A stretch of DNA of 63,291 nt, the filler included, from Bigelowiella natans CCMP2755 (lineage: Eukaryota; Protista; Cercozoa): NCBI GenBank assembly GCA_000320545.1. It is 5 parts of 5 records of this genome, joined end to end, with 100 filler letters (N's around TTAATTAATTAA, not from the genome) between each part and the next. Parts side by side here need not be neighbours in the genome. Positions count along the whole stretch, not along the records: positions 1 to 7,866 come from ADNK01002983.1; positions 7,967 to 21,316 come from ADNK01002728.1; positions 21,417 to 48,721 come from ADNK01002740.1; positions 48,822 to 62,126 come from ADNK01003267.1; 1 more part is not named here. One strand, written 5' to 3'. Numbering within the stretch: the first letter of the stretch is position 1; every line of letters starts with the position of its first letter. The notes below the pieces were generated by a model that had not been told where the DNA came from, did not search any database, and worked only from the letters and a program-made list of their open reading frames with translations. A program made the position numbers and the translations under genes. Shown here piece after piece: positions 900 through 57,460 of the stretch.

Positions 900-2100
900 G
901 ATTGAGCAGTTCGATTCATAATGCCATGCTGTGGCATGGTGCTTGCATGCGTTCGACAACTGTGGATCAAATATCAACACTGTGCGTTGGGATTGAAAGC
1001 GACACTGACACAGATGACAGTTTCTTGGTCCGATGTGGCTCATCAAATCCCTCATTGAACAATCACACATGTGCACATGACATGAATGCGCCTTTTGAGT
1101 TTTTGCGATTGCATCCATGCTCAAGGCGCTGCGCGAACTTTGCCCATTTCTGCATGTGACGATTAATTTGCGGTGGCGACTTGCTAGCTTGAGATGCTAG
1201 ACTTGCGCGCATGCGAGCACGACAAAGCGAGAGAGCAGGAGCTTGGCATCTTTGTCCATGCGACATGAACATCGTGTGCCGCATTGCCACTTGAATGCAG
1301 ACCAACAGCGCGTTTGTTGCGTACAGATGCTATCGTTGGCAACTGTCTGTGCACCATCTTGCAAAGTGTGATGTTTGTTGTCGATCACCGCCATGCAGCG
1401 TCACCGCAAGTTGCGAAAAGCGCTTCCTTCATCATCATTCACACATGCATGTGGCGTGCGTGCCATTGTGCACCATTCGCGCACGCGCATGCACCAGCTG
1501 CATGACAATGATGACACACAACATCGGAGTGTCATTGGTCAGGACAACGATTCATGCGGGTCACATGCGCAAATAAATCGATTTGCAACTCGAGAAAGAC
1601 ATCGTTGCTCAAAATGCATGCAAATGTCATTGAAAAAACAGGACTGCTGAACTGTGCATGCCACGTCACTGATAGTTGTGGTCTGCATGTGTGCATTGGC
1701 AATGCATAAACATCCGCACGTCCCACATGACATGCAGTGATGGACACCATGATGAAATGCACGCTGTGTGCATGCACGTGTCACGTTGCTTTGTCCATCG
1801 CACGCGTGCATGATGCATGCAATGCACACGTGACATGTGCTTTTTCCACGTGGTGCCTAGTTGCAAGGCACGTGTGCATGCATCGTAGGACATCGACAAT
1901 GTGCAAATGACAATGAAAGGTGCTGTTTTTTTGTTCTTCAATGTCTTCACCCTGGCGCCTCTGTGATGACTAGATGACAATTTTTCAAAGAGGGCAAGCC
2001 GAAGCGAAAGAATGGCATGCGAGACTGTGCGGAGCAAAATGATTGTGGCAAAAGAGTTGCAGACAAAAACGATTTCAGTGAAGCCTACATCAACCAAGCG
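900..2100. other. TpA-depleted island with CTAG footprints
   Basis: Few TA dinucleotides and abundant catg/tgca. Footprints cttg-CTAG-cttg 1180-1191 and atga-CTAG-atga 1966-1977. Boundaries approximate. Confidence 0.8.
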
Positions 2101-3052
2101 CACTGCCTGAAGAAAAAGATGAAAAAGAAAGAGAAGCAGAGGAAGGAAAATAATCCAGGCTGCATCGTAGACACTCCCCGGATTTTGAGCAATCATCCCG
2201 ACGATCTTGCCCACCAACCGCAAACAGCTTGCCATCACCAATAGCCACCCCTAAACTCCTCCTCTCAGTCCGCATTTCAGACAGTTCCTTCCAACCTTCC
2301 TCCATGTTCTCCAAATCCAGATGCTCCCCAGATTTTGAGCAATCATGCCGCAGATCATACCCACCAACCACAAATAGCTTGCCATCACCAATAGCCATCC
2401 CCAAACTCCTCCTCTCAGTCCGCATCTCAGGCAGTTCCTTCCAACCCTCCTCCATGTTCTCTAAATCCAGATACTCCCCAGATTTTAAGCAACCATCCTG
2501 ACGATTATACCCACCAACCGCAAACAGCTTGCTATCACCAATAGCCACCCCCAAATACGTCCTCTTAGTCCGCATGTCAGGCAGTTCCTTCCAACCCGCC
2601 TCCATGTTCTCCAAATCCAGATACTCCCCAGATTTTTTGGAAAAATGCCGACTGTCATACCCACCAAGCGCAAACAGCTTGTTATCACCAATAGCCACCC
2701 CCAACCCCCCCCTCCCAGTCCACAAGTCAGGCAGTTCCTTCCAACCCGCCTTCATGTTCTCCAAATCCAGATACTCCCCAGATTTTGAGCAATCATCCCG
2801 ACGATCATACCCACCAACCGCAAACAGCTTGCCATCACCAATGGCCACCCCTAACCCCCCCCTCTCAGTCCGCATTTCAGGCAGTTCCTTCCAACCCGCC
2901 TCCATGTTCTCCAAATTCAGATACTCCCCAGATTTTTTGGAATGATGCCAACGATCACACCCACCAACCGCAAACAGCTTGCCATCACCGATAGCCACCC
3001 CCAAATACGTCCTTTTAGTCCGCATGTCAGGCAGTTTCTTCCACTCCGACAT
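2090..3052 (-). CDS. Kelch-repeat (beta-propeller) protein, six ~50-aa repeats
   Basis: Repeats W-K-E-L-P-x-M-R-T-x-R...G-V-A-I-G-D-G-K-L-F-A-V-G-G-Y-D...S-G-E-Y-L-D-L carry the kelch GG, Y and W signature. DNA period is 150 bp. Confidence 0.9.
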   Translation of the reverse strand: MSEWKKLPDMRTKRTYLGVAIGDGKLFAVGGCDRWHHSKKSGEYLNLENMEAGWKELPEMRTERGGLGVAIGDGKLFAVGGYDRRDDCSKSGEYLDLENMKAGWKELPDLWTGRGGLGVAIGDNKLFALGGYDSRHFSKKSGEYLDLENMEAGWKELPDMRTKRTYLGVAIGDSKLFAVGGYNRQDGCLKSGEYLDLENMEEGWKELPEMRTERRSLGMAIGDGKLFVVGGYDLRHDCSKSGEHLDLENMEEGWKELSEMRTERRSLGVAIGDGKLFAVGGQDRRDDCSKSGECLRCSLDYFPSSASLSFSSFSSGSALG

Positions 3053-4141
3053 TTAGTCTCCGTTCTGCCTCTGCTCCAGCACATCAATTGTTGTATATCC
3101 ATTGATTTTTCCACTATGAGGTCGTCCCAGTCTCTGAACGATGTAGGCACTCGCGAGTATCTCAGCTTTGTGAATTCCATTTTTCAACCTGCCCAGAAAT
3201 CGCTTCTTTTTCATTTCATCTGCGATCAGTTTGTATTTTTCTTTGTCGCTGGTGTGTGCATCATCATCATATTTCTTCCTCAGTTGTGCGATATCTCTTT
3301 CGGTTGAGTCATGCAAAGTTTGAAGTGAATTTGATAACTGAATCTCAGCTTGGGCGATGGCAGTCAGCTTTGTTTCATGACCATGCTTTCGCAACGTGCG
3401 AACGCTCTCTCCTGTGAAAGATGTCCCATCAATTGTTGCGCTTTTGTTTCCGAATTGGGACATAAACGAGATTTTCCCATCGTTGAATTTGTATCTTAGC
3501 ACAAATTTTATATCTGTCTGCTTGAAGGCATATTGCTCTGTTGTTAGTGTGTAAGCGATTTTGCAATTCTTTTTGCCGTTCAAAATGTTCTGAGCATTTC
3601 TCATCCTGCCACAAATGCTCCGCCCTTCCAACACGTCGGTGATTTCCGTGATTTTCTTGCGATGTTTGTCCAAAACGTCTCGCTGGAGCATGATTTCACG
3701 GATCAAATCTCGCTCTTCGCATTCACTGTCCAGTCCTTCACCACCCCCTTCATCCCGGTCTCCACCGACAATTGCATCTTCCAATGTCTTCAATCTAGCT
3801 TCACATACGGATGCATCTTCCTTTCGCTTCTTCAACTCTAGTTCTAAATTTCCTCTCCAGTGTTTCACATAATTCCTCAATTGCTTCAACTTTGTCCTTA
3901 GGTTCTTAAATTCGTTGCTGGTTTGATTGCCAGAAACGATGAAAGTCGCAGCTTGTCCGCAGTTTGTCGGTTCTTTGACGTCACTGTTGCTCGTTGCTAC
4001 TAGTACCGACGCCTTCTTTCGCCTCTTCCTTTGTCTGCCATCTTGAACACTGACTGTCCAGTCCTTTGTTCCCAAGAACTGTGACACAAAAATAGTCCTT
4101 CCTGCAGGAGCTGCTTCTTTGCATGATTGCATTTGTTGCAT
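3053..4141 (-). CDS. N-terminal charged/coiled-coil region, in frame with the kelch ORF but separated by one TAA (possible pseudogene)
   Basis: 362-aa ORF whose stop (3053-3055) directly precedes the ATG of the kelch ORF in the same frame. Confidence 0.6.
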   Translation of the reverse strand: MQQMQSCKEAAPAGRTIFVSQFLGTKDWTVSVQDGRQRKRRKKASVLVATSNSDVKEPTNCGQAATFIVSGNQTSNEFKNLRTKLKQLRNYVKHWRGNLELELKKRKEDASVCEARLKTLEDAIVGGDRDEGGGEGLDSECEERDLIREIMLQRDVLDKHRKKITEITDVLEGRSICGRMRNAQNILNGKKNCKIAYTLTTEQYAFKQTDIKFVLRYKFNDGKISFMSQFGNKSATIDGTSFTGESVRTLRKHGHETKLTAIAQAEIQLSNSLQTLHDSTERDIAQLRKKYDDDAHTSDKEKYKLIADEMKKKRFLGRLKNGIHKAEILASAYIVQRLGRPHSGKINGYTTIDVLEQRQNGD

Positions 4142-4148
4142 GTAGCGT

Positions 4149-4477
4149 GGCCGGTCGAATGAGTTTTTGCTTTATGGTTTCATTTGAACGTTCGATAGCG
4201 TGCGTCAAGTGAGCTCTTATGTCCGAAGAGAAGATGACCGACCATGGATGACGAAAATCCAAAACGACTTAACAATTCAAAATAAGATCCGCCAACTTTC
4301 TTGTCGTAGAACAAAAAAGGCGATATCACCAAGCACCGGCAGGCGGGCCGGTCGAATGAGTTTTCAAGTGAGCTCTTTCTTATGTCCGAAGAGGAGATGA
4401 CCGACCATGGATGACGAAAATCCAAAACGACTTGACAAGATCTGCCAACTTTCTTGTCGTAGAACAAAAAAGGCGAT
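4149..4477. repeat. Local imperfect direct duplication (~130-180 bp units)
   Basis: ggccggtcgaatgagtttt...tatgtccgaagag.agatgaccgaccatggatgacgaaaatccaaaacgactt...gccaactttcttgtcgtagaacaaaaaaggcgata occurs at ~4149-4326 and ~4346-4477. Confidence 0.85.
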
Positions 4478-5276
4478 AACACTAAAGGAACATTGCGATT
4501 TTATAGCTGCGACAAGGAGGAATCCAGACGTGTTGCCCGAGGTTCCATACGAGTATCTCCTGCTCATGGGGGATGCGCTGAGGACTCCTTCTCCACTGAC
4601 TGCCCAACAGAGAGATGGCCACAACATGCTCCTCCGCCTTTTCTCCGTCCTTCCTGTCAATCTCGCGAGCTGGCCAGCGCTGCAAAACTTTGAAGCCCGC
4701 AAAAGCGGCGCTGCTTCTCGCTGGCGGCCATTATAGGCAGGAGGGGGCGGGGAGGGGGCGGGGGGGCCACTCCGATTATGGATGCTCGAAATTCACCAAA
4801 ATCTGCTCCCTACCCAGGAAGACGTCCGTGTCATGCTGCTGTTCTCTCCGATCTGAGTCTTCAGGTACGATTTCTGTTAGCTAGAAGAGGGGGGGAGGAG
4901 TATGAGCAGCAGTAGCAATGTTGTCAGCTGTAAGCAGCACTCACACCATTCTTCTTCGTATCCTCTCACTCCACAATGATAAGACCATATGTTCTTGTTT
5001 CTGTCGCATATGCAATGCTGTGGGGATTTAGCTCATTGAATCATAAGGAGCATACCGGACTTTACCCGCGTACCTCCCCCCCCCCCAACCCCCCCGAACA
5101 CACGATGCTAATACTAAGACTATCAACTACTTGTTAGGGCTGACTCTTGTGGCTGCGACCAACGTGTTCTTATTCGAGCCTTCGTTCAATTTCGCAGTGG
5201 AGCAACAAGCCATAAACAGGGTACTCCTAGTATGAGAAGTATCTTGGGGCTGGCTTTTGCTGAACTGTTTGTGTAT

Positions 5277-5315
<39 letters not shown>

Positions 5316-6599
5316 AAGATTCATCGGATTGGCCAAACGAAGCCTTGTACGGTGAGACAGCGACAACGTGTACAGCACGCCAACCGACAATAGCAGCAAC
5401 AATGCAGTAGTAGTACCTCATTCGTTTCGGTTTTTTATTTACATTCCCTTTCCCACCCCGCCATCATTTGTGAGATGATGACTTGCATATACAGTAACAC
5501 GAACATAGTCTCTGTTCCCATTGTCTAGTGCTTAGTAATGACGTAGAACTCTTATTCCCTCCCCCCCCCCCCCCTTTGGCCGGCCCCTCGCAATGCTACT
5601 GATGCTGATGCTGATGGTGTTGTGCTGAGCTTATAGTTTCTGCCTGTCCGGATGGAATACCACTCAGGTGTACCGCTTTGTAACGACGAACACAATCGAG
5701 GAAAAGATTGTCCAGGTAGTCAACTTGCCAGCTGCCCTGCGGCGATTCCATAGTCGTATAGACAGGGTTGGGTGCTTGATATGGCAGTCATGTTCGGTGT
5801 GATTTCTTTATGAGGTGTTATGAAGATATATTTCCTACGCTTTGTTTGGCCCCTCCCCCCCTTGTACTCCTCCTCTCCCCCTCCCTCACTATCTACCAAA
5901 ACTATGACGATACGATAGATAACTACCGAGGGCATGCAACAGCAAAAGGCTAGCAGTAGGAGTAAGAAGAGAAAGAGGACTTCTGGTAACGGGGAGGGGG
6001 GAGACGATGATAATAATGGTAATACCGAGGCACATACGAATCACTAGCAGTGACGTGTATGGAATAGTGGTAGTTTCATTGACTGTTGTTTCCATTCCTT
6101 CCCCGCTCCTCCTCCAGTGCGATTGTGAATATTATAGCAATGAGATCCACCACTACTAAAGACGAGTGGTGTTCTAGCCATTTGGTCATCCACCACAATC
6201 TGTGATTTCATCGCTAGCAACGTCGATGTCGTACACCGAACACACATCCTGCTACTCATAGGTTTGGGGCTTGGAAAGGGAGCGAGAGGAGAGGACGACC
6301 AAAACGGCGATGGGGTTGCAATTCAGAAGGCAAAGGAGGAGATCAAGGCAAAACCGCCCTTTGTTCATCATGACCATCACATGCACCCGAGCGCCCAACC
6401 TCGTTGTTGCTGATGCATGCAATGTGCAAACATGCTCATACTCGTCATCCGTGTGATTGTGAGGAGGATGCTTGACGCGAAATGTGATGACAGGTGAACC
6501 AGCTCCTGTATCTTCTGGGCATCGTTAAGAACGCAGATGAATTATGTGATGGAACTGCAAGACAAATCTAACGAGCCCCGTGACGTAGATTTATAGATT

Positions 6600-7650
6600 G
6601 CCCATTGGAGATGTTGATTGAGCAGTTCGATTCATAATGCCATGTTAGCTAGCATGGTGCTTGCATGTGTTCGACAACTGTGGATCAAATGTCAACACTG
6701 TGCGTTGGGATTGAAAGCGACACTGACACAGATGATGGTTTGTTGGTCCGATGTGGCTCATCAAATCCCTCATTGAACAATCACACATGTGCATGGCATG
6801 AATGCACCTTGCAAGTTTTCGCGATTGCATCTATGCTCAAAGCGCTGCGCGAACTTTGCCCATTTCGGCATGTGATTGATTTGCGGTGGCGACTTGAGAT
6901 GTTGTGAGCTTGCACGCATGCGAGCATGACAAAGCGGGAGAGCGGGCTAGCGGGAGCTTGGCATCTTTGTCCATGCGACATGAACATCGCATGCCGCATT
7001 GCCACCTGAGTGCAGATCACGACCAACTACAGGGCGTTGTTGCGTACAGATGCTATCGTTGGCAACTGTCTGTGCACCATCTTGCAAAGTGTTCCATCAT
7101 TGTTGTCGATCGTCGCCGCCGTCGTCTCCGCATGCAAGTTGCGGAAAGCGCTTCCTTCGTCATCATTCGTGTATGCATGTGGCGTGCGTGCCATTCGCGC
7201 ACGCGCACTGTTGCACCTGACAATGATGACACACAACGTTGGCGTGTCATTGGTCAGGACAACAATTCAAACGGGTCACATGCGCAAATGAATCGATTTG
7301 CAACGTTCATCGAGAAAGACAACATTGGTCCAATTGCATGGAAATTTCATCGAAAAAACAGGACTGCTAAACTGTGGCACGTCACTAACAGGTACAGTCC
7401 GCCTGGCAATGATGCACAGACATCCGCACATCCCACATGACATGCATTGATGGACATGCGATGATGGAGACCGTGATGCAATGCGAAACTGTGCGGAGCA
7501 AAATGATTGTAGCAAAAGAGTTTCAGACAAAAACGATCTCAGTGAAGCCTCCATCAACTGAGCGCACTGCCCAAAGAAGAAGCCGAAAAATGATGAGAAG
7601 CAGAGGAAGGAAAATGATCCATGCAACGCAGACACTCCCCAGATTTTGAG
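6600..7650. other. TpA-depleted island (paralogue of 900-2100)
   Basis: Same composition bias. Footprint cggg-CTAG-cggg 6943-6954 is absent from copy 1. Confidence 0.75.
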
Positions 7651-7866
7651 CAATCATTCCAACGATCTTGGCCACCAACCGCAAATAGCTTGCCATCACC
7701 AATGGCCACCCCAAAACTCCTCCTCTCAGTTCGCATGTCAGGCAGTTCCTTCCAACCCGCCTCCATGTTCTCCAAATCCAGATACTCCCCAGATTTTAAG
7801 CAACCATGTGGACGATTATACCCACCAACCGCAAACAGCTTGCCATCACCAATAGCCACCCCAAAA
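7554..7866 (-). CDS. 3' end of the second kelch-repeat gene copy (truncated by gap)
   Basis: AIGDGKLFAVGGYNRPHGCLKSGEYLDLENMEAGWKELPDMRTERR... Confidence 0.8.
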
Positions 7867-7966
7867 NNNNNNNNNNNNNNNNNNNNNNNNNNNNNNNNNN
7901 NNNNNNNNNNTTAATTAATTAANNNNNNNNNNNNNNNNNNNNNNNNNNNNNNNNNNNNNNNNNNNN
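7867..7966. other. Artificial contig-joining spacer (N44-TTAATTAATTAA-N44)
   Basis: The identical 100-nt spacer with stops in all six frames recurs four times. Confidence 0.95.
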
Positions 7967-8139
7967 TCCCCCCTCCCTCCCTCCTCCCTCCTCCTGCTGC
8001 TGCTGTATCTACTACTACTACTACTACTCCTATCTAATTCAAACTCCTCCAACGACCTGCTTAAACCAGTCACCTGCAACCTCGTGTTAAATCCCGCCAC
8101 CTTCCGCCCCCTCCCCCCCTCCCCCCCCCCTGCCTACAG

Positions 8140-8629
8140 GAGATCCCTCCCGGAGGCTGTACGTCAACAGAGAAGGGACGCTTGAGCTGGAGGGGGGGGA
8201 TGAGGAGCACGACGATAACTCGGATTTCAACGCAGGGGTAAATGGCGGCGGCGACCTCAATGACCGCAGCAGCGGCGAGTACATGTGCTACGAGGACGTT
8301 TCAGAGGCCGACCTGAACCGCGGCGAGCGACACCGCAGGGTGCGAAGGGCGCACAAGCAACGGCTCCGTGAGATGGCGGAGAGAAACCCGTATGGCTGGG
8401 GTCTGGGCGGCGCCGCCCCCCGGCCTCCTCGTCACCTCCGCGGGGAGGGGGGACAGCGCGTGGATGAGGAGGGGAAAATGGGAGATCATATCGTGCTGCC
8501 GGACTCTGATACGAATGAATACAACGAGGTAGCGTGTTTGGAGATGAAAGGCGTTGGAGAGTGCGGAGGGAATGGTGGGAAGGGGGGGGGGGGGGGGGGG
8601 GCACCAGACATTTTTCAAGACCTTATTGC

Positions 8630-8679
<50 letters not shown>

Positions 8680-8766
8680 CCTTAAATTCTCTCCGATAAC
8701 TTACCAGCTTGATGCACGTGAGTTGGAGGACAAGGTGGTGGCAATGGGGGCTCTCACACAGGTGCT

Positions 8767-8797
<31 letters not shown>

Positions 8798-9792
8798 TCA
8801 CATGATGAATTTTTTCGCCTTAACTATAATCATCATCATCAAGTTCTTCTCCCCATCCTTCCGTTATCTCGCCGACACTTGTAATATCACACAACCTATT
8901 TGTCATTTTATCCATGATCAATGCCATTACTACTGAATTGTTACAAAAATTCAATCGCAATCACCGCATCACGCCATTTTTTCAGGAGCAAGAGCGATTC
9001 GTCCCTGAAATACCATCAGTTCAGGTCTGCAGATTCTGCCTGCCTGACGAGAGCTCTTTCAAAATAGGGGGAGGGGGGGGGGGGGACAATAGCAGTATTT
9101 GTGCGTGTGTGAAGTAGGGTCATTATTACTCACGATCGATACAAAATGACTTAACTACGACATTACGGAGGAGGAAGTATCCTCTCCTCCAGTCATTGAT
9201 GGCGCGTTGTTGTCATCATCTCTGCATTTCATGCGTTTGCGGTTAGGACGACGATGTTGATCGGCTCAAAAGGGAGCGCCAGTTGCTGGAGGTGAATGCT
9301 TCTGCGCTGACTACACTCCCAATATCGAGTCTGAATCTATCATCTCTATACTACAGGAAGGGTGGAAATTTCGCAACCCGGGAGACCCTCTCGACGCCGA
9401 CAGTGACGCTGATAGAGAGAGAGGCGAGGTATTGACGTAGTCAATGATCACGTTTGTATGTGCGTGTAGTGGCATGCAAACGGAAGCTGGCCATTCTGTA
9501 GCACTTTGAGAGAGGTTTCCTTAACGTCTTTCACGAGGAGGATAAATAGTAAAATTAAATTCTTTTGAACTTAAGCAGCATACAGCTGTGTGATAGTGTC
9601 GTTGCTCCTTCTTTCCCTCCAGATAATCCCATCCCCCTCTCTCGCTGTACGGTTAAGAGTTACGATTCACATTTCATCATAAAACAGGAATTTCTTCAGG
9701 AGATGCTCCGATATAGTCCCCAGTATGAGCGGCCGGACGGTATTTCCGGTACAAGGCTGGCTGAAGCAGCTGCACGACGCCCGCCATTGTGA
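8140..9792 (+). CDS. Multi-exon uncharacterised protein, 3' part
   Basis: Acidic open segments bounded by ag/gt (e.g. LDARELEDKVVAMGALTQ, EQERFVPEIPSVQ, DDDVDRLKRERQLLE), ending EFLQEMLRYSPQYERPDG...PPL* at 9792. Exon boundaries approximate. Confidence 0.55.
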
Positions 9793-9829
9793 CAGCGATA
9801 TTGATGATGATTATGATGATGATGGCAAT

Positions 9830-10700
9830 GATGACATGATGCATGCCACAGTTGAATGCCTTATTTTGACGCGGACTTCGACTTCAGAGCGTCTAACAAT
9901 GAAATATCGACCTTCATGCTTGTGATAAGTCCAATTGTACTCATTCACAGCATGCGTGTTGCTCTCTCCACCAAGACGTGTGCCATGCATTTGCGCGCTG
10001 CTGCTGGAGTTCCTGATGTCGATTGTGTGTTCATGCAGCATGCAAATGCGTGTGTGCAATCTAGATGTGTGCACATGTGTGCCGCTAGCTTCGCTTGCAA
10101 AAAATGATTTTCATGCCAGTCCCAGCACACATGGCCAGCACTGCGATGCACTGCAGAGCTGGAGTGCACCACAGCGTGCGTGCGCGCACAAAACGCGAAC
10201 AGCACAACTCAACAAGCGCAGCACCAAGCTAGACAGCGTGCGTGCATGTGTGTGCACGTGCCCTCCCATGGCACTCATTGCAGTGCTGAAGTGCACTGCT
10301 AGACTGATCGCGATCGTTCTGCACATGCACGTTTTGACACACAATGAAAACACACACACACGTGCACAAACATCACTGCACTCCTGCATGTTCTTGATTT
10401 CGCTCCCCAGAGCGAAGAAGCGGAATTGGACAATTCTCAACTGCGACTGTGTCTGCGTTCCCGAACATCTTGGACATTTTTGCTGCCGCAAACGTGATTC
10501 ACGAGCGAGCAGCCCCTGGCCAGGCCTTTGTCGGCCGATGAATTAATTCCAGGGGAGGAAAAAAAAAAGGCGGCCACAGAGCGTGAGATTGATGATGGAT
10601 TTGATGGCTGATGTGCCAACATCAGAAACGACGTTCACAGTGCGAAGGGCCAAATAACAATGGAAATCTCCCGCCCTTTTTGATGGTTTTGATGCAATTT
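9830..10700. other. TpA-depleted island
   Basis: TG/CA-rich with rare TA. Footprint actg-CTAG-actg 10295-10306. Confidence 0.8.
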
Positions 10701-10836
10701 GCGCAGTCGCTAACTGCAATTCCCCTTGTGTTTTGTCCCCGTCATCTTCGGTTATGACGCGTCGTCGTCGCCCGTTGTGGTAAGCTGGGGATCCGGGGTG
10801 GGACAAAGAAAGGCTCCCTCGCCGAGCAAGATCGTT

Positions 10837-24619: not shown

Positions 24620-26000
24620 GTAGTTGTCGCATTGAGAAAATCGCATGCCTTTCAAACACGAGATGACACTGAGCCGTTGTCACCACTTCTCTTCGTGGTG
24701 TTGGACTACCTAAGAAACTAGAAAACCGCGTGAAGACATGTTGTCGCATACACCAAAACGTCTGAGATTTCTTCGCATTTCTGTGGTTCTGACGCGTGTG
24801 ATTTTTGATCAATGCTTCTTCTCATGTTTCATGTTTCATGTTTCTGTGTGCGTTCGTTCGCTCTGATGATGAGGGCGCACAGATTTTCGCAGCTAGCTGG
24901 AACGCGATGCATGCTTGTGCCAGCGTGGTGATCAACTCTGCTAGTCTGGATCGCAAGCGCGAATTGGACGTGCGTCGCAACCTGGCAATCGATCATCATC
25001 ATGGATCGAAGTGCGGACTCGAGCCGTGAAAACGTGAACCCGCCAACCGTTCCAGCGTTTTGCACGTGCAGCGTGCGTCCTGGCGTTCTCCAGTTCTCTG
25101 CGCGCGCACACAATTTTCATTTTTCACACACACGTTTTTCGTGTGGGATGGCATGCAGACATGCCACCCTGACATTCATGCACATCGTGCACACGTCTAG
25201 ACGTGACATCACGTGACATGAGATCGACATCATTGCCATGCACAGACGCATGAGCATGACTTGCACAGCTAGACAGATGCAAGTGCGAAGTCAAACGAAG
25301 TCTGGAATTGGTTGAGTTGAGTCTCACTTGTGCGAAAATGACTCGTGCCATTTGCACGTGCGAAAATGACTCGTGCCATTTGCACCAGTGCGACAATCAC
25401 ACTGGGTTAGTCCAGTGGTGGGAGCTGTCAGCGAGAGAGTTGGCCAGCTGGGGGGATTTCCGTCAAACTGCTGCAACCAGAACCCAAGTCTTCATCGACG
25501 TTCTTCCCGCTTGCGAGTTGGAGAGATGCAAACGATTTCGTTTCCAAAGAGAAAACAGAGAGGATCGTGATGACGACGATGATGATGCTGACAGATGACA
25601 ACGGGATCTGCAATGATGTGATCAAGTTTGCCTTTTCTCGTCTCTAGCAATTTCTTGATTGTCACAATTGAATACTCTCTCACAGCACAGCAAATGCAGT
25701 CATTCATCATCTCGATTGTCTCCTTATTGTTGGTCTGTGATGCAAGACCGTCATCAATGCCAACTTCACCAAACTCATTCTCAATGATTGCAAATCAACA
25801 CACACACACACGTTGCAAAGTGCACGTGTCATGGTGTTGACAAACCCGCAAACCCTAGTTGCACTCATCAACGAAACCTCTGCTTGGACTGCCACATGCT
25901 AGCATGCAATGCACAACACTTGATGAGCTAGCGCGTGACGCTGAGTGCATGCAGCTATTTATCAAATTGCCGCCTAATGACACATGCTGCATGTGCATGC
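24620..26000. other. TpA-depleted island with footprints
   Basis: 24781-25920 has only three TA outside CTAG by eye. Footprints at 24937, 25193, 25265 and 25895. A short tandem duplication (gtgcgaaaatgactcgtgccatttgcac) lies at ~25330-25385. Confidence 0.85.
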
Positions 26001-26542
26001 AACAAATACATGCCCATGAATACCTGCATGTCAATTATTCGATTCGTAACATTGCTGTGTCTATCACGATCTAGCAATGCAGGCGCATCGTAGCACGGCT
26101 CACACTAAAATTCATCGCAACATAAGCAAGAGCTAAATGGCTAGCTACAATGCTCCGTTCGTACATGCGCTGTGCATGATGATGATCGCCTATTACACAT
26201 TCATATTCGCTTGATACAGACACGATGAAGGCTTTATGTGTATCATTCACACATAGCGCATGTAATCAAAATATTTAAACCACTTCTCAGCGCGGCCGTG
26301 AATCTCGTTATTGCTTGGATGACCATTTAGTATTCTCCATTGTCACCTCCAGGCCTGTGCAATGATGTTTAAAAAACTCAGAAAGTTTTTCATCACGGTT
26401 CGGTACTTACAAAATTCTTCATCTTTTTTTAATGAAATGATCGACCTGCTTATCTATCATCAGTTTCATCGTGCGCTCTTTCAACTCGGACATTTCCTAT
26501 ACATTAGATAGTCACGCAAGAGTATTATATATTGCGTTCACA

Positions 26543-35400: not shown

Positions 35401-36003
35401 CTAAATCCCTAGTCGATGAATGCAGTCACACACACAAGCATGTAGGGATATACACGAACCCATGTATGCATAGTATACCATATCACTGCTAGATAACCGT
35501 GTGTATGTCGTTAGTATCCACTGGGCTCAAATCAAACATATCATCATCATCAAAAACAAAAACAAAAAAAACAAACTAATTTCTCTTAACCGCGACGATG
35601 CGTTGTATTGCTAGGTGTTGCTTCACGAACGATCACCGATGGCGGTAGGAGGCCACAATCGCAACGGTCAATTCTTGCCCATCGTGTGCCTAGCAAATAC
35701 GACCCACCTCTGATCCCCCCCCGCCGATCAGCGGGCGATGGGGTCAGATAGTTGCTCACAAATGGCTTAGCGGAATTCAGCAACATGTTCCCACATCTTT
35801 GTTCATCACCTTGCAGCGTGCTGCCCGTTAGTGCGTGATTCTTCAACAGCTTTCTCAGTCAGCTCAGGTGCAATGTGTCATACTGATGATGGCACATCGA
35901 ATTTAGTTACAGCAGAGCGCAAGATGATGCGCAATGACGAGAAGATGATAGACATGAAGGGTGTAGCAGCGGCATGCCAAATTTGAGTCCTAGCCAGAGC
36001 TAG

Positions 36004-36954
36004 CACAGCTAGACAGCTCCGTCAAACCCGGTGACAATTGGGTTGTGAACAGTGCAGCGCTTTGAAGCAGCAGGCAGTTGCAGTTGGTCAAGGAAAAGTC
36101 ATCAGAGCTAGCTTGTCCGATGGCCAAACCTAGCAAACCTCAAAAAATGACCGAAATGTTGACCAAAATGTCCATTTTCAAGGCTCACACAGTTCCGTCA
36201 AACCTGCAACGAATCGCCAGAACATGCATTTGGAAGCTTTTGCGCGCGACCAAGCGCGTTCTAGCGTTGTGTGATGTGATGGACATTGGATTTGCTCGCA
36301 TTTCTTTGAAATTTTTCGTGCACATCACACTTGGTCAAACACACGCTAGCACGCGCAAAAGCACTCAAAATGTGGCAGAGAACAAACGCGCAGCGTGCAT
36401 CCTTTGCACAATGGGTGTGATTTTTAAGACTTCAGCACTTTTCGCGCTCACTGAGGCCTTGAAAATGGACATTTGGGTCAATTTTTCGGTCATTTTTTGA
36501 GGTTTGGCCATCGGACAAGCTAGCAAGTTCTGATGACTTTTCTCTGACCAACCGGGACTGCCTGCTGCTTCAAAGCGCGTCGCAAAGCACTGCACCACTG
36601 TTCACAACCCCGTCAATGCCGGGTTTGACGGAGCTGTGTCAGTGAGCGCGCAAAGCTAGAAAGTGTGAAAATTCACACCCGTTGTGCAGAGGATGCACGC
36701 TGCGCGTTTGTTCTCTGCCACATGCATTTTGAATGCTTTGCAATGGACACAGCAATGCAACGTGTTGTGGATTGCATGTCCATCATCTTTTGCGCGTGTG
36801 TTTGACCAATCTTTGTGTGCACGAAAAATTTCAAAGGAATGCGAGCAAATCCAATGTCCATTGCATCACATGACGCGCTTGCTAGCTTGGTCGCGCGCAA
36901 AAGCTTCATCCAAATGCACATTCTGAAAATTGTCACAGGTTTGACGGAGCTGTG
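36004..36954 (+). mobile_element. MITE-like non-autonomous DNA element (outer copy)
   Basis: Terminal inverted repeats CACAG(+8-bp footprint)CTCCGTCAAACC ... GGTTTGACGGAGCTGTG. Interrupted by an inverted copy of itself. Confidence 0.75.
36188..36638 (-). mobile_element. MITE-like element (inner copy, 451 bp), inverted, 3-bp target duplication TCA
   Basis: TIRs CACAGTTCCGTCAAACC / GGTTTGACGGAGCTGTG, flanked by tca at 36185-36187 and 36639-36641. Its reverse complement matches the joined halves of the outer copy. Confidence 0.8.
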
Positions 36955-37236
36955 AGCCATGCGATAGCCAACACACAATTGCATCAAACAACACAGTGGC
37001 CATGGCTTGCTGTGACAAAAGCTCATTCATCTTGTCATCGTAGCTACGACGATGCTGCACCTGCTAGCCTGCTACATGCTAGCATGCACCACAGAGATGT
37101 AGATCGCCTAATAGTATTTCTAAATTATGGTCAGTACGTATGACTAAGTCTAGATTCACATGCAAATAAAAAAGCTACAAAGCTCTACGATATACACGCA
37201 TCTAAACATCTATATACAACGTTGGTATCTATCCAA

Positions 37237-48721: not shown

Positions 48722-48821
48722 NNNNNNNNNNNNNNNNNNNNNNNNNNNNNNNNNNNNNNNNNNNNTTAATTAATTAANNNNNNNNNNNNNNNNNNNNNNN
48801 NNNNNNNNNNNNNNNNNNNNN
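48722..48821. other. Artificial contig-joining spacer
   Basis: N-run with central TTAATTAATTAA. Confidence 0.95.
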
Positions 48822-48849: not shown

Positions 48850-49675
48850 GAGTATCTCTATGCATTCACGATATATTTCCCTTGCGGTTTTGCCAGGTCG
48901 TGCAGTGGTGTCAGGCCCAGGGCGTCCACCGCAATCAAAGGTGCTGCTGATTTGCCCGCGCGCTCTCTCACACTACTCGCAACCGTCATGGGAATTAATA
49001 GTAGCATTAGAATTAGTGGTGGAAGTAGTAGTGGTGGAAGTAGTAGCAATGTGTTCGTGTTTGAAAGAGGTCGGTGCCTAAGCTGTCATGTCCTCCTTTT
49101 TGATGCTACCCGTGCATGGGTCCTCTATCTCTCGCCTTAGGGTATCTTATCTGTGCTGCCTCTCGTGCTGCTGTTCTGCTTTTGTAGACTACTACTTCTA
49201 CTACTACTACTACTACTAATACTACTAATACTACTGCTCCTCATTGCGGCAGCCGCATATATAACCCTCATCCTCTCTCTCTGCCTTCTCTTCTTAGTGC
49301 CATCGACTATATCTCGGAGAGGCTTGCTCGGCCCATTTACACCCGCCTCAATCGCACGGCGGAGGAGGTATTTTCGAAATTTCCGGGAGAGGCTAGGGTG
49401 AGGGGGGGAGCAGGGAAGGGCAGTGTTGTGAGGCCAGCACGAACTCACGAGTTGATACTCCCCCATGCATGTGAATAGGATGGCAGTCAAGAGCTCAAGA
49501 TCGGTGCAACGACGGTTGCTGACTCTGCCAAGTTGTTGGTGAGGCGGCAGTATCAATCGGAGCAGCAGGAGCAGCAGCAGCGTTTAGCATCTTCTGACGA
49601 GCTCGAAACGTTTGGCATGCCTCCAGAAGATGCATCGCGTGCTCGGCTTCGGTCTGGCTTCTTCAAAAACATCAT
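48850..49675 (-). CDS. 5' part of an uncharacterised multi-exon gene
   Basis: Segments MMFLKKPDRSRARDASSGG..., LGRVSNRRCTDLELLTAILFTCMGEYQ, KFRKYLLRRAIEAGVNGPSKPLRDIVDG. Confidence 0.4.
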
Positions 49676-49720
49676 AGACGACAATAGCAACGACGAATAG
49701 TAGTCCAAGCAAGGACGTAC

Positions 49721-49756
<36 letters not shown>

Positions 49757-49799
49757 AGTCTGAAAAGTAATGAGTCTAGAAGTGCGGCTATAGTGCTGC

Positions 49800-50660
49800 A
49801 CAGCCATTGCAGCATGGCAGTGTGCGGTACGACACCCGTTACGATCGTTTGCAGAGCGCATAGATCGTTTGCATGATGACAGCCCGCTACGCAGCCATCA
49901 TGTGCGAATATGCCATGCACATATCGCATTTAAGGCATTGCTATTAGATTACCTCTTTGTGACGACTACATTTATCATTGTGATACGTTTGCAACGAACC
50001 GAGTGACCCGTCTAGCCGTACGTGCGCGGCGTATGCAATCATGGAGACGGCCAAAGTAGGGGCGACGCTAGCAAATGTAAGACGGATGCATAATGAATCA
50101 ATCAAATTTGTTCAATGGTCATCCTCATGCTACGTAGTTGTCTAGCTGTGCAATGCCAGCGGCTACGTACAGCGCTAATTTTGAATCTGTTGGCTTCCGC
50201 TGCTGATGTGTTTCATGCGCAAATGTGTAATGCCTAGCAGCAAGTGCAGGTGCTTGTGCATGTACGTAACACAACCAGACACGCGCATGCAACTGCAACC
50301 ATAGCAATGAGCATTAGCGTAGCACGTACTAGCGCATGATAATAGACACAGTAATAGACACATATGACCATTGTGTAAACATCTAATTATTTCATTACAT
50401 CCGTCGTCTCATGCATGCTAGCATGTGTACACAGCTAGATAGAGGTCTGCATCATCGTCCTGATGACATGGATGCTTTTACTAGTTTAATTGCATGAAGC
50501 ACACGGTGGCTAACACAAACCGACACAACATGTATGAGCGCTGTAGCCGCTGCTCTGTGTAGCTACACTACATTAGCTAGCTATAGGATGACCATTGAAA
50601 ATATTTAATTATTTCATTACATCCGTCTCATATATACACGCTGCATGTGCATCATGACAC
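49800..50660. other. Partially TpA-depleted island with footprints
   Basis: ccgt-CTAG-ccgt 50008-50019, catg-CTAG-catg 50414-50425, ttta-CTAG-ttta 50477-50488, plus single-mismatch cases. Many TA still present. Confidence 0.6.
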
Positions 50661-50773
50661 TTGCAAATTCGAGCTAAGACCTTCTGCGCATCTCATATAT
50701 ATTAGGTTCCCGCATGCTCATATCGTAGCAAGGAGAAAAGAGCGTGTTCACCCAGCAAAACATTCACGCATCA

Positions 50774-52350
50774 TCAGAGGCCGAATATCGCACACATTTC
50801 GGACACTTCCATTGCTGTCAATGATTTTATTGGGGGCGGCTCAGCTTCTTCGTTGATGCTATCGTCTCTCTCGGCGGTTGTCATGGCCGGGCTACTATTC
50901 TCTCCAGGCAAACTCGAGAGAGATTGCACGGGTAAGAGTTCCTTCGCCTCTATACTAGTCGCATCAGAGTCTTTCCTTCGTGTTTCAGGACAACCCTTTT
51001 GGCAACCACTAGGTGCTGGCCTCACGGTGGTGGGGGTATCTATTCCATGGTTTTGGCTACTTCCGCTACTACTGCTGTTGCTGCTGCTGCATGAAGCCGA
51101 CGCACAGTAAACCGAACGTTTCTCGACACTGGTTCGTACAGTTTTCTGGGATTTCTTGCTCACCCTACTGCCACCCTTTTCGCACAGCGAGGAGCGTCTG
51201 CTGAACATGTCACCTGGAAGAGAGGCATTCTGACCATCAGGCGTCCTTCTCCCGGTGGCGATTGTATCCGCCCTCACGGTCCTCGTCGCCGGCGCCGACT
51301 GCAGTTGCCTTTTCCGAGGGGCAGGAGATGCCACATCGGCAGGGCGACGTACTGCCCTCCGTGCTTTCTTTTGACGAAGCTCGGTGTCGCTACTGTCGCT
51401 ACGAGCGTCTCCGTTTTGGAAGTCTAGAGTGCACTGAGAGAGAGAGAGGGAGAGAGAAAGAATAAAACAACATGTGAGAACGATAGATTAATCACACAAG
51501 AACACACACACACACACGCACACACAAGGATCGCTGAGTCAAAAGCAAATATGAACGCCTAGACAACCGCACCACACGCTATATCATCGCGCCATGCAAT
51601 GCAATCAGCGGCCATCTATCTTCGTCTACCAACCTTCTCCCCTAGGATTGATTGCAATGGAAGTCAAGTGTGCAAGGACTCCAGAGCAAAGCAAGCTGTC
51701 GATCAAAGCCGGGAGTGCTATGGCTTGATGACTCGAGTCAAGCCAGAAGTGCAAGGGGCTTAACTTCGATTTGGCTTACCACCCCTATACCCCTCTCTTT
51801 CGACACGGTTTCATGTCCTTTCCGTGGATAAATTCAGAGAAATCTTTGTTATTTACGTAGGAAGGATGTCATGTGTTGCGGGGAGGGAGGACGGTTTTAC
51901 TTCTTCAAATTCGCTATATTTTTCTAGATTTGGGTGGGGGGTGCTACGTCATAGACATCTTACCTCTGGGTCTGGGCACATGATCACCTTCTCCTCGATG
52001 TTAATCCAGAACGAGCGCAGCTGCATCCCACAGCTGCACATGCCCTTACTCGCTGGTCTCTTCCGTTTTCCTATCTTTCTTGTCGCTGTTCTACTTGTTG
52101 CTTTGTTGAGTTCGGGATCGGGAGCGAAAAATGGCTGGTGTCTCGTGGCAGACGTTGTTGAGCCTTCATAGCTAGGCGTGTGGCGCTCTCTTGTGAAGAT
52201 CTCCCCCTCCAGTCTTGTTCGTTTCTTGAAGGAATAGCTATGGGATCTACTCTCCCCGCTCATCTGACTTTGGAGCGTGATCGAGTCCATCCGCGCCTTT
52301 GTTTTTCCGGAGGCGCAGGCCCCTAGAGGAATATTCGTGGGGCCGTGCAT
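50774..52350 (-). CDS. Uncharacterised low-complexity protein with a Cys cluster (possible zinc site)
   Basis: First exon ends ...GMCSCGMQLRSFWINIEEKVIMCPDPE. A later exon reads CTLDFQNGDARSD...PAPRKRQL to the stop at 50774. Confidence 0.5.
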
Positions 52351-52757
52351 CGAATCAATGTGGGATGAGCAGTGCGGAAATGGAGTTTTAAGATTGTTAT
52401 GAAAGCTAATAATTTAACATAAATACAATAATATCATATAATAATTAAAAACGACATATATCATCTCAATTTATTATCTATAAAAGGAGCTCCTCAGAGC
52501 CTAGGAGTTCCCTTTCTCCCGCTGGCTGGCGAGTCCGAGGAGGCGGAGATAGCGTGGAGACCTGGAGATTCTTGGTGTCTTCGCAAAAAAAAAAACATGT
52601 CGCCATTGCAAATCGTATGATCTCATGCAAAATAATTTTTACGAGCGCATTAAAGCGGTATTCCAGTAAAAACGTCCTCTATTTTAGTTGTCCCGGGTGG
52701 GGATTACAAATTCTTAGCCATACTTCACAACGCCGCAGAGTGCGCAAATCCATCAAA

Positions 52758-53953
52758 ATGGCGGACGAATCGAAGGACCAAGATCGGGCAGAGGAGAAAC
52801 CGGAGGTGGCCCAAATCCCGATTCAGATGCATGACCCAGACAGTGTTATGATTTCAAGGATCCACATCCCATTTTCATTAGACCAAGGACCAAGCTAAAG
52901 AGGACGATCGAAGCCCGGAACGCGGTATCATAAGTACATTGAGATCACAATCAGCAGAAGATTAAATCCATTTTCTTCATAAACTGATACTTTCATAAAT
53001 GGAAAGTTCGGACTAAAAAAAAAAATTTTATTCATGATTCCTTATTTGTTCGATGTAAAGAGCCCGGGGGCTGACTTATGTTCATACTAGATTTTATTTC
53101 ATTCTGTCCTATTCCTTCCTGTTTAATTAAGCTTGCATAAGATTGCATCTGTTTTGCTTGCTTTACCACCTACTGTTCACACATGACACACATGTTGTTT
53201 CCCGCATTTTCCATTCCAAAAGCAGAGTGGTATTTCGCTTTAATCCACGTGCCCGACGTTTACATAATCGCATTATATTAAGCAGGGGATAAGGATGATC
53301 GTGGAAACGATAGCGATAAAGACGACGACCGTGATCGCAGCCGCGGCCGTAGCAGGGACCGCAGCCGCGACCGCGATGATAGAAAGTCCAGGCGAAGAGA
53401 CGATGATGATGATGATGACCGCCGTCGTGACCGATCTCGTGACCGCCGTCGTGATCGATCCCGTGATCGATCCCGCGACCGACGCCGTGATCGATCCCGC
53501 GAGCGCAATAGGTCACGCGATCGTTCCGGGGAACGCGGCCGCGGTGGTGGTGGCGGCGGCGGCGGCGGAGGTCGGCGCGATACAGGAGATGCTGAGGGAG
53601 AGGGAAGGAAGTGCTTCCTCGGAAACCTCAGTTTTAACACCGATGAGGATTACATCCGTAGGAAGTTCAGCAAGTTCGGCGACATTGCCGACGTTTTCCT
53701 CCCCAGGGACTACTACAGCGGAAAGAAAAAAGGATACGGATTCGTCACCTTTGAGCACCCACGTGACGCTGAGGACTGCATCTCCGAGATGGACGGCTAC
53801 GACTTCGACGGTCGTAGAATCACTGTGGATCTAGCTAAACCTCGTCCTTCGAATGATCGTGGTGGCGGGCGCCGTGATGACCGCGACCGCGACCGTCGCC
53901 GAGATGATCGTTATGGCGACCGTGACCGCGACCGTAGGAGAGATCGCTACTAA
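52758..53953 (+). CDS. SR/RD-rich RRM protein (SR-like or Tra2-like splicing factor), probably three exons
   Basis: DRSR repeats, then RRM KCFLGNLSFNTDEDYIRRKFSKFGDIADVFLPRDYYSGKKKGYGFVTFEHPRDAEDCISEMDGYDFDGRRITVDLAKPR (RNP2/RNP1). Stop TAA 53951-53953. This frame is not in the ORF track because the last exon lacks an upstream start. Confidence 0.9.
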
Positions 53954-54149
53954 GTAGTAGCGTCGATCGTTCTGACTGGATACACGAGGGGGGTTGGAGC
54001 TTTTCACACAAAGTGGGCATGGAAAAGGGAGGAAGAAAGAATAAAATACGGAAGGGCGCACTGTGATTATGAACAGGAATCCAAGAACATAACGTGCAAC
54101 ACATCTACGCCCTCTTATATGTATTTTACCTCTTGAAATCTTCACGGTG

Positions 54150-55070
54150 ATACCCAAACATCAAACATGTGTGTCCTTGTCTGTGTGTGTCTACGTCTTT
54201 GCACATGCGTTCCATGTCTTGCTTGGGGCATAATTTATATTTGCAGCATGCAAGTGAAAGCAAGCAACCATGTCCATCAATCATTGAATGCGCCGTAGGG
54301 CAATGTGGCTGTAGCTGACAAGGCCAGCCGCACTGAGTACAGATGTGCAGAATCGAATGCGGTTGTTGTAGGGGGAGTTGCACATGATGATTGTGCCATG
54401 CGCATGATGAGCCCTGCGCAGCCGTGCACGTTCCCCACATCCGCCACCACAAGCTGTCATGCATGTGTTGTCGTCGCCAACTCAGTGTAGTGACATGTCG
54501 ATCAGCACAAGCTAGCAAGGCAAGAATTCGTTCAATGCGGCGGCACGACAACTTGCACTTGTCATGTGGTTCAGGATGTGCATGTGGAGGAAGAATTCTG
54601 TCTTCGTTTCACCTCGTCACGATTGCAAAACACAAAATTTCACTCTAGTCCCAGCTAGCCAGACCAAGTCCAGCAGTTAGAATGTGCAAGAAACAAGAAA
54701 CATTGCAGATGGAGTCATGTTGAAACACTCCCCTTGTGACCTGATGGAAGATGGTGTTCTTGCTTGCGTTGTCGAGTGCGATCATTGGAAACAATGAAAC
54801 AATGAAACAATGATGAAAAACTACATTTCCAAAGTGTTGCAAGACACTTGCAGTGTGCAAAATGCAGTGCCTCGAACTGGTTGGAATGGTGGTTTTTTTC
54901 TTCCCAAGCAACACTGTCAGCTGCCAAGAGAATTGCCCACATGCGGGTGGAGTCCAATTAGGAGCCCGGGTTTGGTTTTGTGCGGGGTTCTTTCTGTCTA
55001 GATGCCCTCTTTTTGGAATGCAAGAACTTCCAAAATGTGATCTGCATTCTTCGGAATGTGTTCCCCTGAT
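54150..55070. other. TpA-depleted island with footprints
   Basis: caag-CTAG-caag 54508-54519, ccag-CTAG-ccag 54651-54662. Confidence 0.75.
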
Positions 55071-55199
55071 CCAGATATTTTCCGATGATATTTTGGTTTA
55101 TTTCACTTCAATCAATGAGGATGTGTGACTCTTTCTCAAGTTACGAAACCCAGTAACCGCCAGGAGGAATATATGACGACCCTCCCCTGCCAGCATAAC

Positions 55200-56693
55200 A
55201 TGCCGGCGCTCACTTTCGTTCTCGCGGCGATGTGTGTGTCGGTATGCGCTGCTGCTGCAAGCCCACGAGTCTTGCCGGGAGTTGACCTGAGCGAGAACGC
55301 TGGGCCGCAATCCATCATGCTCGTGGTGAAGGGCGAGATGGGCCTCGACGAGATGGCGCCTTTGGACGATACTCTGCCACGCTCGCTCAAGCGAGAAGCC
55401 GTCTACAGCTTCCTTACGGACAGGGCGGAACGTGGGCAGAAGTGTGCACGCGCGGCCCTGCGCAAACGGAACGTCGAGTTCCAAGCGTTCTGGATAACCA
55501 ACGCGATCTCGGTACGAGAGGTGGCAGGCCCAGTGCTCCGAGACATCATCACAGAGTGCGGGTACGAAATCGAGGAGGTCAGACAAATGGGTTACCTCAA
55601 GCGCCGGATACCACCTCAAGATTCCATGCGGCCGCAGCCTGTTTCCTCAAAGCTCCAGTGGAACATCGAGAAGGTCGGGGCGGACAAGGCGTGGGCTGAT
55701 GGCCACGATGGGACTGGCGTCGTTGTGGCCACTCTAGATGGAGGCGTTCGGTACACCCACGATGCGCTTATCAACAACTACCGAGGGACGGTGGATGCTG
55801 ACAAGGGCAAGTTTGAACACGACTACAACTGGAAAGACTGGCCGTACAAGAACAAGGAGCCTCTCGACTCGGATGGCCACGGCACGAACGTGCAGGGGAT
55901 TCTGTCCGGGTCAAAGGAATCGGGGGTGGGGGTGGCGCCCGGCGCTAAGTGGATCTCAGGCAAGATCTTCAACTATGCAGGATACTCCTCCAACGAGTGG
56001 ACGCTGTCAGGCGTCCAGTGGGCCATGTGCCCCACTCCGCTGGCATCTCGGTATGAGCAGTCGGGGAACTGCTCTCTGGGTGCCGACGTCGTTTCTTGCA
56101 GCTGGGGAGAAGACGACGCCACCACCGGGTTTCTCAAAGACGCCATGGCAGCTTGGCTCAAGGCGGGTATGGTACCTGTCTTCGCGGTGGGAAACGCAGG
56201 CCCGCATTGCGGTACAGTCGTCAGCCCTGCAGATTATGCCGGTGTGCTCTCTGTGGGGGCCACCGATAAGCATGACGAAATGGTTGAATTCTCCTCTCGG
56301 GGGCCTGGTGCGAACGGCACTAAAGGCGCCCTTCCATACGACCCTTTAACACCCAATCTTGTTGCCCCCGGACTGATGATCCAAGGGCCATCTCATAAAA
56401 GCGACGACGGATACACTGGTTTTTCTGGCACGAGTCAGGCCGCACCACACGTAGCGGGAGCAGCAGCGTTGCTGCTCTCCGCTCATCCATCATGGAGCCC
56501 GCATCAGGTCGCGGAGGCCTTGTACGCTACAGCTGCCACTGCATCTCTTCCGGTTCCAGATTCGGGGTGGGATAAATGCGGAATGCCTGATGCTGCACTT
56601 GCGCCAAACGCCTCTGCTACGTTTCCCAACTTCATCGCAGGTTATGGCCGCCTTGATGCTGCTTCGGCGGCAGCATATTCCAAGGCTCATTAG
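55200..56693 (+). CDS. Secreted subtilisin-like serine peptidase (S8, bacillopeptidase F-like), intronless
   Basis: Signal-like MPALTFVLAAMCVSVCAAAASP. Catalytic Asp (VATLDGG), His (DGHGT), oxyanion Asn (AVGNAG) and Ser (SGTSQAAPHVAG). Confidence 0.92.
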   Translation: MPALTFVLAAMCVSVCAAAASPRVLPGVDLSENAGPQSIMLVVKGEMGLDEMAPLDDTLPRSLKREAVYSFLTDRAERGQKCARAALRKRNVEFQAFWITNAISVREVAGPVLRDIITECGYEIEEVRQMGYLKRRIPPQDSMRPQPVSSKLQWNIEKVGADKAWADGHDGTGVVVATLDGGVRYTHDALINNYRGTVDADKGKFEHDYNWKDWPYKNKEPLDSDGHGTNVQGILSGSKESGVGVAPGAKWISGKIFNYAGYSSNEWTLSGVQWAMCPTPLASRYEQSGNCSLGADVVSCSWGEDDATTGFLKDAMAAWLKAGMVPVFAVGNAGPHCGTVVSPADYAGVLSVGATDKHDEMVEFSSRGPGANGTKGALPYDPLTPNLVAPGLMIQGPSHKSDDGYTGFSGTSQAAPHVAGAAALLLSAHPSWSPHQVAEALYATAATASLPVPDSGWDKCGMPDAALAPNASATFPNFIAGYGRLDAASAAAYSKAH

Positions 56694-56696
56694 GGT

Positions 56697-57460
56697 CCTG
56701 CTAGCCTGGCAGGACAGAGCTGTACGCTGTGATGGAAAAGGAAATGGATGTTGCAAGCGCGTTCGTTCCACTTGTCAACTCAGTGAAACATGGTGTAGCA
56801 TGACCAGACGATCCAGAGTGCTGTGTGTGAATCTTCATGTTTTTAACATAACGCATCACACATTTTTTAACTTGATATTGCATGATTATACAACGTGTGT
56901 GGGCGTGCAGCGTTATCTCATCATCGTACGCATGCACATGTGTGTTAGTCAATCGAACATGTCTAGATTCACGTTGCAGCGCGCAAGGGATGCATTATTT
57001 TAGGCTGTGCATACGAAATGCAGATCTAGTCAGACATTCTAGACATCAATATTGCACCATATCTGCTGTAGCCATCGCGCACCACTGCGTCAGCCAATCG
57101 CCCAAGATCGAAACGCATGCGATGCACAGCCATGTTGCAAACCAATGCAATCAAGCTTAATTGGCGTGCGCGTCAACACAACAACTTCCACGATGAATGA
57201 TGGATCGGATGGGCAACGCAGCAGAGTTTTGCATCTCATCAAGCATAGCAAGCTACACAGAGACCAGCAGAATTCTCACCCAGCGTGCAACCATCGCCAA
57301 ACACTGTCTCAAGTTGCCCAGCATTGCCACGTCTAGACGTCTGACATAGACGTCTTGGATCGGATGAAATACATTGTGTGTACGTGGGTGCTACGCTGCA
57401 CATTGGCAGCTCCACAATGATTATCACACTGTCAAAACGATGCGAGGCCAATGCAATCTA
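56697..57460. other. TpA-depleted island between convergent 3' ends
   Basis: cctg-CTAG-cctg 56697-56708 begins 4 nt after the peptidase stop. acgt-CTAG-acgt 57329-57340. Confidence 0.65.

Follow-up and report, generated by a model that had tools for sequence, protein, structure and literature searches.

Fossil TpA erasure and island-restricted W-CTAG-W insertions in intergenic DNA of Bigelowiella natans

The DNA analysed here (hereafter the window) is a stretch of 63,291 nt made of five joined parts of the genome of Bigelowiella natans CCMP2755 (GCA_000320545.1), and all positions run along this whole stretch. It is eukaryotic DNA, rich in introns, with Kelch, REJ/GPS, RRM, subtilisin and PPR plus helicase genes; the best named matches of the Kelch open reading frame (ORF) are B. 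natans proteins (Kelch paralogues, 56–61% identity), with no match at orthologue level. Ten islands (a–j) had been listed in a preliminary description as nearly devoid of the dinucleotide TpA. The process behind such a loss is already in print and is not new: TpA hypermutation has been quantified in B. natans lines kept under mutation accumulation, where it was suggested to serve as an antiviral defence, with 231 mutations in two viral regions, nearly all TpA to TpG/CpA and in some lines only, besides 21 indels, 124 genomic clusters of low TpA, and an ADAT2-like deaminase as the proposed candidate (bioRxiv 10.64898/2026.01.13.699255). What appears to be new is a second feature of the islands, short insertions with CTAG at their centre.

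We determined the TpA observed/expected (o/e) ratio of the ten listed islands from base composition. Eight of them (900–2100, 6600–7650, 9830–10700, 14490–15350, 17450–18260, 24781–25920, 36001–37020 and 54150–55070) had ratios of 0.14–0.30, with 10–17 TA against 53–79 expected (Poisson p 4e-10 to 2e-20), in agreement with the several dozen per kb predicted earlier. Since the window outside the islands has a ratio of 0.74, the true island contrast is approximately 3–5-fold. The erasure claimed for the other two was weak at 56700–57460 (0.59) and failed at 49800–50660 (1.06, no depletion, yet with TG/CA at ~1.55). The detailed counts given earlier were exact: 36001–37020 holds only two TA outside CTAG (36425 and 36965) and nine CTAG, if the one at 36000–36003 is counted, and 24781–25920 holds three (25408, 25673 and 25725) and seven CTAG. 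In the pooled islands TpA was ~0.2, TG/CA 1.75, CG 0.85 and AA/TT 1.12, which is the opposite of the signature of repeat-induced point mutation (RIP), namely C>T at CpA/TpG with a gain of TpA, as had been proposed. Five of 63 1-kb windows pass the TpA cut-offs of the preprint (bioRxiv 10.64898/2026.01.13.699255), no two of the five being adjacent, and no run of at least three consecutive passing windows was found among the 63; the islands are smaller than the preprint's cluster scale. Wild RNA contigs scarcely cover the islands, which has no bearing on silencing.

The direction of change was read from a CobW gene fragment in island f (Pfam E 3.4e-9), which has 88% DNA identity to two metagenomic loci, L001 and L006. 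The closest long relatives of these loci are one with genes of nucleocytoplasmic large DNA virus type (L004) and a contig of a giant-virus metagenome-assembled genome with the same ORF layout as L002; from these sequence relationships the fragment is likely of giant-virus origin. A host pseudo-exon with an 18-bp deletion was rejected, as the piece is truncated and nearest to likely viral genes. Over 195 bases compared with L006, 12 of 15 TA have become CA or TG, the single CTAG is kept and two are otherwise changed, whereas 10 of 162 non-TA positions differ, four of them as T>C or A>G (Fisher p 6e-13); one TATA has become TGCA. Thus the change runs from TA to CA/TG, on both strands and specifically at TpA, and the strand-symmetric mutator postulated in the preliminary description is borne out by this polarised excess. 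In the encoded protein, nine conserved residues have been replaced, five of them through a single TA change, and two of the three leftover non-CTAG TA of island f look newly made (D>Y and E>K at conserved residues). Both products also occur elsewhere: copies of the island g family are dimorphic for CA/TG at the same site (36223–4 and 36277–8), and of the summed depth over the TA at 54822–3 in a high-copy repeat, 17% carries T>C and 28% carries A>G. As side observations on the viral relatives, the likely giant-virus contig L002 carries at 8075–9919 (minus strand) a 614-aa ORF with no Pfam match, which looks TnpB/Fanzor-like, and the passages of the ChlorV paper (PMC13196603) that were searched mention neither CobW nor CTAG.

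These data bear on three other accounts of the TA loss. It is extremely unlikely that the islands simply consist of TA-poor repeat families or never had a normal TA content. The family of island g appears TA-poor across its copies, and some amplification after erasure is possible; however, the islands are mutually unrelated except for a/b and h/j (two of 45 pairs), which rules out a single repeat family occupying them all, a single site that reads CA in some copies and TG in others must have been resolved independently, and at positions where the window reads CA/TG the viral outgroup carries TA, refuting this account for island f. Gap filling in silent chromatin by a Pol eta-like polymerase prone to A>G errors at WA would fit the general divergence between islands a and b (20 gaps and 23 transversions in 830 aligned bases), but is very unlikely to have erased TA, because AA/TT is not depleted, A>G at AA is seen only once or twice in the 162 positions compared with L006, and the GC-biased changes of the mutation-accumulation lines all fall at TpA (bioRxiv 10.64898/2026.01.13.699255). 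The third account is a mutated thymine instead of adenine; A>G on one strand is T>C on the other, and sequence cannot separate them. A T modification at TpA, for example TET/JBP-type hydroxylation, would mispair with G and give T>C. The coding strand of the CobW fragment has nine T>C and three A>G, a difference that is not significant (p 0.15), and thymine hydroxylation occurs in some protists. We regard a thymine route as unlikely, since no TET/JBP-type enzyme of Bigelowiella was among the literature matches listed, whereas the ADAT2-like candidate does come from B. natans (bioRxiv 10.64898/2026.01.13.699255).

Approximately half of the island CTAG, unseen in the preliminary description, are the centres of a composite motif, W-CTAG-W, in which CTAG stands between two identical 4-mers (W). 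With island limits fixed before the test (12,080 bp; Table 1), 31 of 69 island CTAG had this form compared with 1 of 93 elsewhere in the window (p 5e-13), and the sole outside case (37237) lies ~140 bp from island g. The same arrangement around other tetramer centres (W-NNNN-W) reached 1.3%, with a Markov null of 0.8%. None of 59 CTAG in seven outside-island stretches, largely intron or gene, and 9 of 1,354 in 82 unrelated loci were flanked in this way. The flanking duplication was four bases at all 31 island sites, and 18 of 32 W sequences were CNNG, with none having G first or C last, i.e. a symmetric target preference.

Table 1. Features of the window, with positions of W-CTAG-W in each island
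Feature	Position	Strand	Character	W-CTAG-W
Joins between parts	7867-7966, 21317-21416, 48722-48821, 62127-62226		N44 + 12-base all-frame stop marker + N44	
Island a	560..2100		TA-depleted; tandem-duplicate paralogue of b, beside Kelch-repeat gene	1184 (empty in b), 1970
Island b	6270..7650		Second copy of a	6947 (empty in a)
Island c	9750..10750		TA-depleted; 606 bp without non-CTAG TA	10299
Island d	14300..15400		TA-depleted	14892, 14902, 14924, 14944
Island e	17400..18300		TA-depleted	17637, 17710, 17770, 18111
Island f	24650..26200		10 of 16 eroded W-CCAG/CTGG-W candidates	24941, 25197, 25269, 25899
CobW (G3E GTPase) gene fragment	25607..25801	-	Truncated, intronless; in island f	
Island g	35600..37100			36009, 36261, 36346, 36520, 36656, 36882, 37064, 37079
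Two MITE-like inverted-repeat elements (MITE, miniature inverted-repeat transposable element)	36013-36637 and 36189-36954		In island g; crossing, one common terminus	
Island h	49780..50720		No TA depletion; inverted-repeat element ~50075-50633	50012, 50418, 50481
Island i	54100..55100		Between RRM and subtilisin genes; 50-bp high-copy repeat 54806-54853	54512, 54655
Island j	56700..57860		Weakly depleted, downstream of subtilisin gene	56701, 57333

Paralogous copies without the eight bases identify W-CTAG-W as insertions. Empty sites were found between a and b and between the arms of island g, and other genomic copies of the g repeats lack the eight bases at 36005, 36260–36264 and 36342. A wild RNA contig spans the 56701 footprint without gaps (depth 2.6, weak), so that at least this one is not a culture artefact. 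The fixed duplication, the symmetric target preference and the constant palindromic linker fit an element that moves by cut and paste and ends in CT...AG or CTAG, and W-CTAG-W are most likely excision footprints of a DNA transposon with a 4-bp target duplication. Fixed-length target duplication with a symmetric target preference is the outcome of DDE transposases. This, together with the footprints in island h where TA is intact, speaks against reading W-CTAG-W as a repair signature, in which a nuclease would make a 4-nt staggered break in targeted chromatin and repair, possibly by the same defence machinery, would add CTAG. We hold such a route to be improbable and know of none that adds a constant tetramer, although the motif is confined to islands, absent from introns and highly uniform, and a search of the window yielded no donor element. 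At 6645, 14691, 17706–17714, 36130, 57038 and 57341 the CTAG linker is doubled, tripled or imprecise; one of these cases has a 9-base CT...AG spacer between identical 4-mers, and they may hint at the element ends. No earlier description of a W-CTAG-W insertion was found in the literature searched, which lay outside Repbase and preprint supplements, and in the main text of the preprint the terms CTAG, footprint, MITE and flanking do not appear (bioRxiv 10.64898/2026.01.13.699255).

CTAG survival in the eight strong islands, where 43 of ~106 leftover TA sit in CTAG, has two causes: insertion of new CTAG and, likely, some sparing. The 44 CTAG of these core islands comprise 24 exact footprints, one near-exact and 19 others, and the last still account for 23% of the 81 TA that remain, compared with 3.8% outside. 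This, although some may be imperfect footprints, excludes footprints alone as the source of the CTAG excess and, with the single CTAG kept in the CobW piece, points to some sparing. CTAG is not wholly spared either, as eroded linkers exist: CCAG or CTGG was flanked by W with at most one mismatch in 15 of 49 cases (null 6.2%; 0 of 300), whereas TTAG/CTAA, the C>T products, were not enriched at that level (3 of 32). The CCAG/CTGG excess, far above that of TTAG/CTAA, provides a second polarised line for the TA to CA/TG direction. Smaller excesses were seen for ATAG/CTAT (5 of 24) and CGAG/CTCG (7 of 48). The context table is compatible with either half of CTAG being the one that protects.

A repeat or duplicate origin is observed for several islands, and the 8-base insertions are confined to these regions. 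The two elements of island g have terminal inverted repeats, no coding capacity and many copies, features of Tc1/mariner-type MITEs; their summed contig depth is 9,000–54,000 compared with 90, i.e. 100–600 times single-copy, a rough indicator and not a copy number. Their arms cross in the order A B A' B'. CA or TG flanks all four ends (one after removing a footprint), which fits either eroded TA or part of the repeat. CTAG at 36108/36520 is present in both arms and absent from other copies, suggesting conversion between the arms. The inverted-repeat element of island h belongs to a high-copy family that also occupies 57570–57860, and short repeats in h (50584–50636) and i (54806–54853) reach ~1,400 times single-copy summed depth, again a rough indicator. 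The stretches 49780–50720 and 57460–57860 represent a TA-rich, high-copy inverted-repeat family with strong purine–pyrimidine alternation (GC o/e 1.8–1.9, CC 0.4–0.5), which may be a not-yet-erased or relaxed island state. A six-frame Pfam scan of nine islands (54 frames; b was left out as a copy of a) gave no domain except CobW, and the flanks of the CobW fragment gave no Pfam match. Island repeat motifs had no matches in metagenome or viral contigs except two with unrelated flanks.

The tandem duplicate that holds islands a and b (1–1754 versus 5709–7466) has a 99%-identical tract (161–870) between stretches 6–14% diverged. We rejected the idea that islands are generally hypermutable relative to their flanks, because the 99% tract includes ~300 TA-depleted bases and the TA-normal stretch 1–160 has itself diverged by 6% compared with 9.6% in the island; conversion or assembly collapse accounts for the contrast. 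The neighbouring sequence 2090–4171 (minus strand) is a single gene of the Kelch family, interrupted near 3053 by an in-frame stop codon, with a B. natans protein (P0135) spanning both parts. Its TpA o/e is 0.37–0.47, and it may belong to an expanded family and have been eroded in part; its ORF at 3053–4171 had no relative in the viral contigs searched. The close relatives of an intronless subtilisin gene (55173–56693) are for the most part marine proteins without a name; a MAST-4 protein belongs to one of their clusters, and there was no B. natans orthologue among the matches listed.

When TA was converted in silico in the non-coding DNA of the window, GC content rose from 0.41–0.43 to 0.47–0.49 in four of five ordinary stretches, and the island values of TG/CA, AG and CG were reproduced. 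Scrambled purine–pyrimidine alternating runs of at least 10 bases numbered 58 in the islands against ~9 expected. They are probably former microsatellites, which would account for the plentiful CATG and TGCA and for GC/CC values beyond simple TA conversion. Short tandem units of the AACAATG/AAACATG type occur in three islands (18089–18132, 24820–24845 and 54780–54815) and could be eroded AT-rich tails.

In our judgement the islands are probably the decayed remains of repeats, duplicates and likely viral DNA, with TA turned into TG/CA by host hypermutation and with 8-bp W-CTAG-W insertions, likely excision footprints, added to them. The TpA-specific hypermutation known in B. natans would likely perform the conversion, with adenine deamination as the predicted, leading-guess chemistry; the mutator would be aimed at foreign or repeated DNA and act in episodes. 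In addition, an element with CT...AG (or CTAG) ends would duplicate 4 bp on insertion and leave its terminal bases on excision, and CTAG would be a poorer, although not immune, target of the mutator.

Several observations weigh against this interpretation. The window yielded no intact element that combines CT...AG ends with a matching duplication, and footprints are present in islands h and j even though TA is not fully lost there. L001 and L006 are short contigs whose viral origin is inferred from relatives at 78–79%, and the Pfam scan gave no origin for islands c, d and e. Simple TA conversion fails to give the island values of CC/GG (0.59) or GC (1.44). No ongoing mutation was seen: over islands i and j the sequencing runs X1 and X9 agree with the window, but these may be the window's own source. 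Fourteen DNA runs from one organism contain 98–100% of the words of 53200–57800 and may be the source of the window. The eroded linkers, 13 with one mismatch compared with two exact, fit a steady state poorly; their concentration in island f and in the one-mismatch class would fit better with episodic erasure followed by new insertions.

It is also conceivable, but doubtful, that a single host defence programme, one that edits and excises, accounts for both the TpA mutator and the CTAG scars. An invading element that duplicates 4 bp would be marked, the element and ~1 kb of flanks would be hypermutated at TA, and the element would then be cut out leaving W-CTAG-W, each island being a record of repeated cycles of insertion, editing and removal. 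The footprints beside intact TA in island h indicate that the two processes are separable and have a common compartment without being tightly coupled.

The window adds an outgroup-polarised fossil example to a process known from one recent preprint only, and extends TpA hypermutation to small repeat patches beside ordinary host genes, below the preprint's cluster size. Erosion of W-CTAG-W could be used genome-wide, through a simple pattern search, as a built-in clock and context control, and the scars suggest a transposon or repair route, yet to be characterised, that is restricted to island regions. The mechanism of a naturally occurring adenine editor of DNA with TpA specificity would be of interest.

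RIP, the C>T transition mutagenesis of repeats in ascomycetes, resembles the islands in being local, dinucleotide-specific and directed at repeats, and is likewise read as genome defence; however, RIP makes TpA, whereas the islands lose TpA and gain GC. Excision footprints of Tc1/mariner elements consist of the duplicated target flanking 2–4 bases from the element ends, an arrangement shared by W-CTAG-W, but their duplicated target is TA, whereas here it is a variable 4-mer (mostly CNNG) around a constant linker. TAG is a favoured ADAR context, whereas it looks disfavoured in the islands. Antiviral editing by ADAR/APOBEC and the TadA/ADAT deaminases have in common with the islands an A>G change after T (bioRxiv 10.64898/2026.01.13.699255), but here the change is heritable and in host chromosomal DNA. 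The closest likeness is to the B. natans system of the preprint, where TpA likewise turns into TpG/CpA on both strands, CpA plus TpG is high and TpA low, and foreign and repeated DNA is hit. It differs in that its viral regions of 25 and 186 kb and its clusters of at least 3 kb were measured de novo (bioRxiv 10.64898/2026.01.13.699255), whereas those described here are fossil patches of ~1 kb that lie between host genes and consist of MITE-like repeats, duplicated sequence and a likely viral piece of 195 bp.

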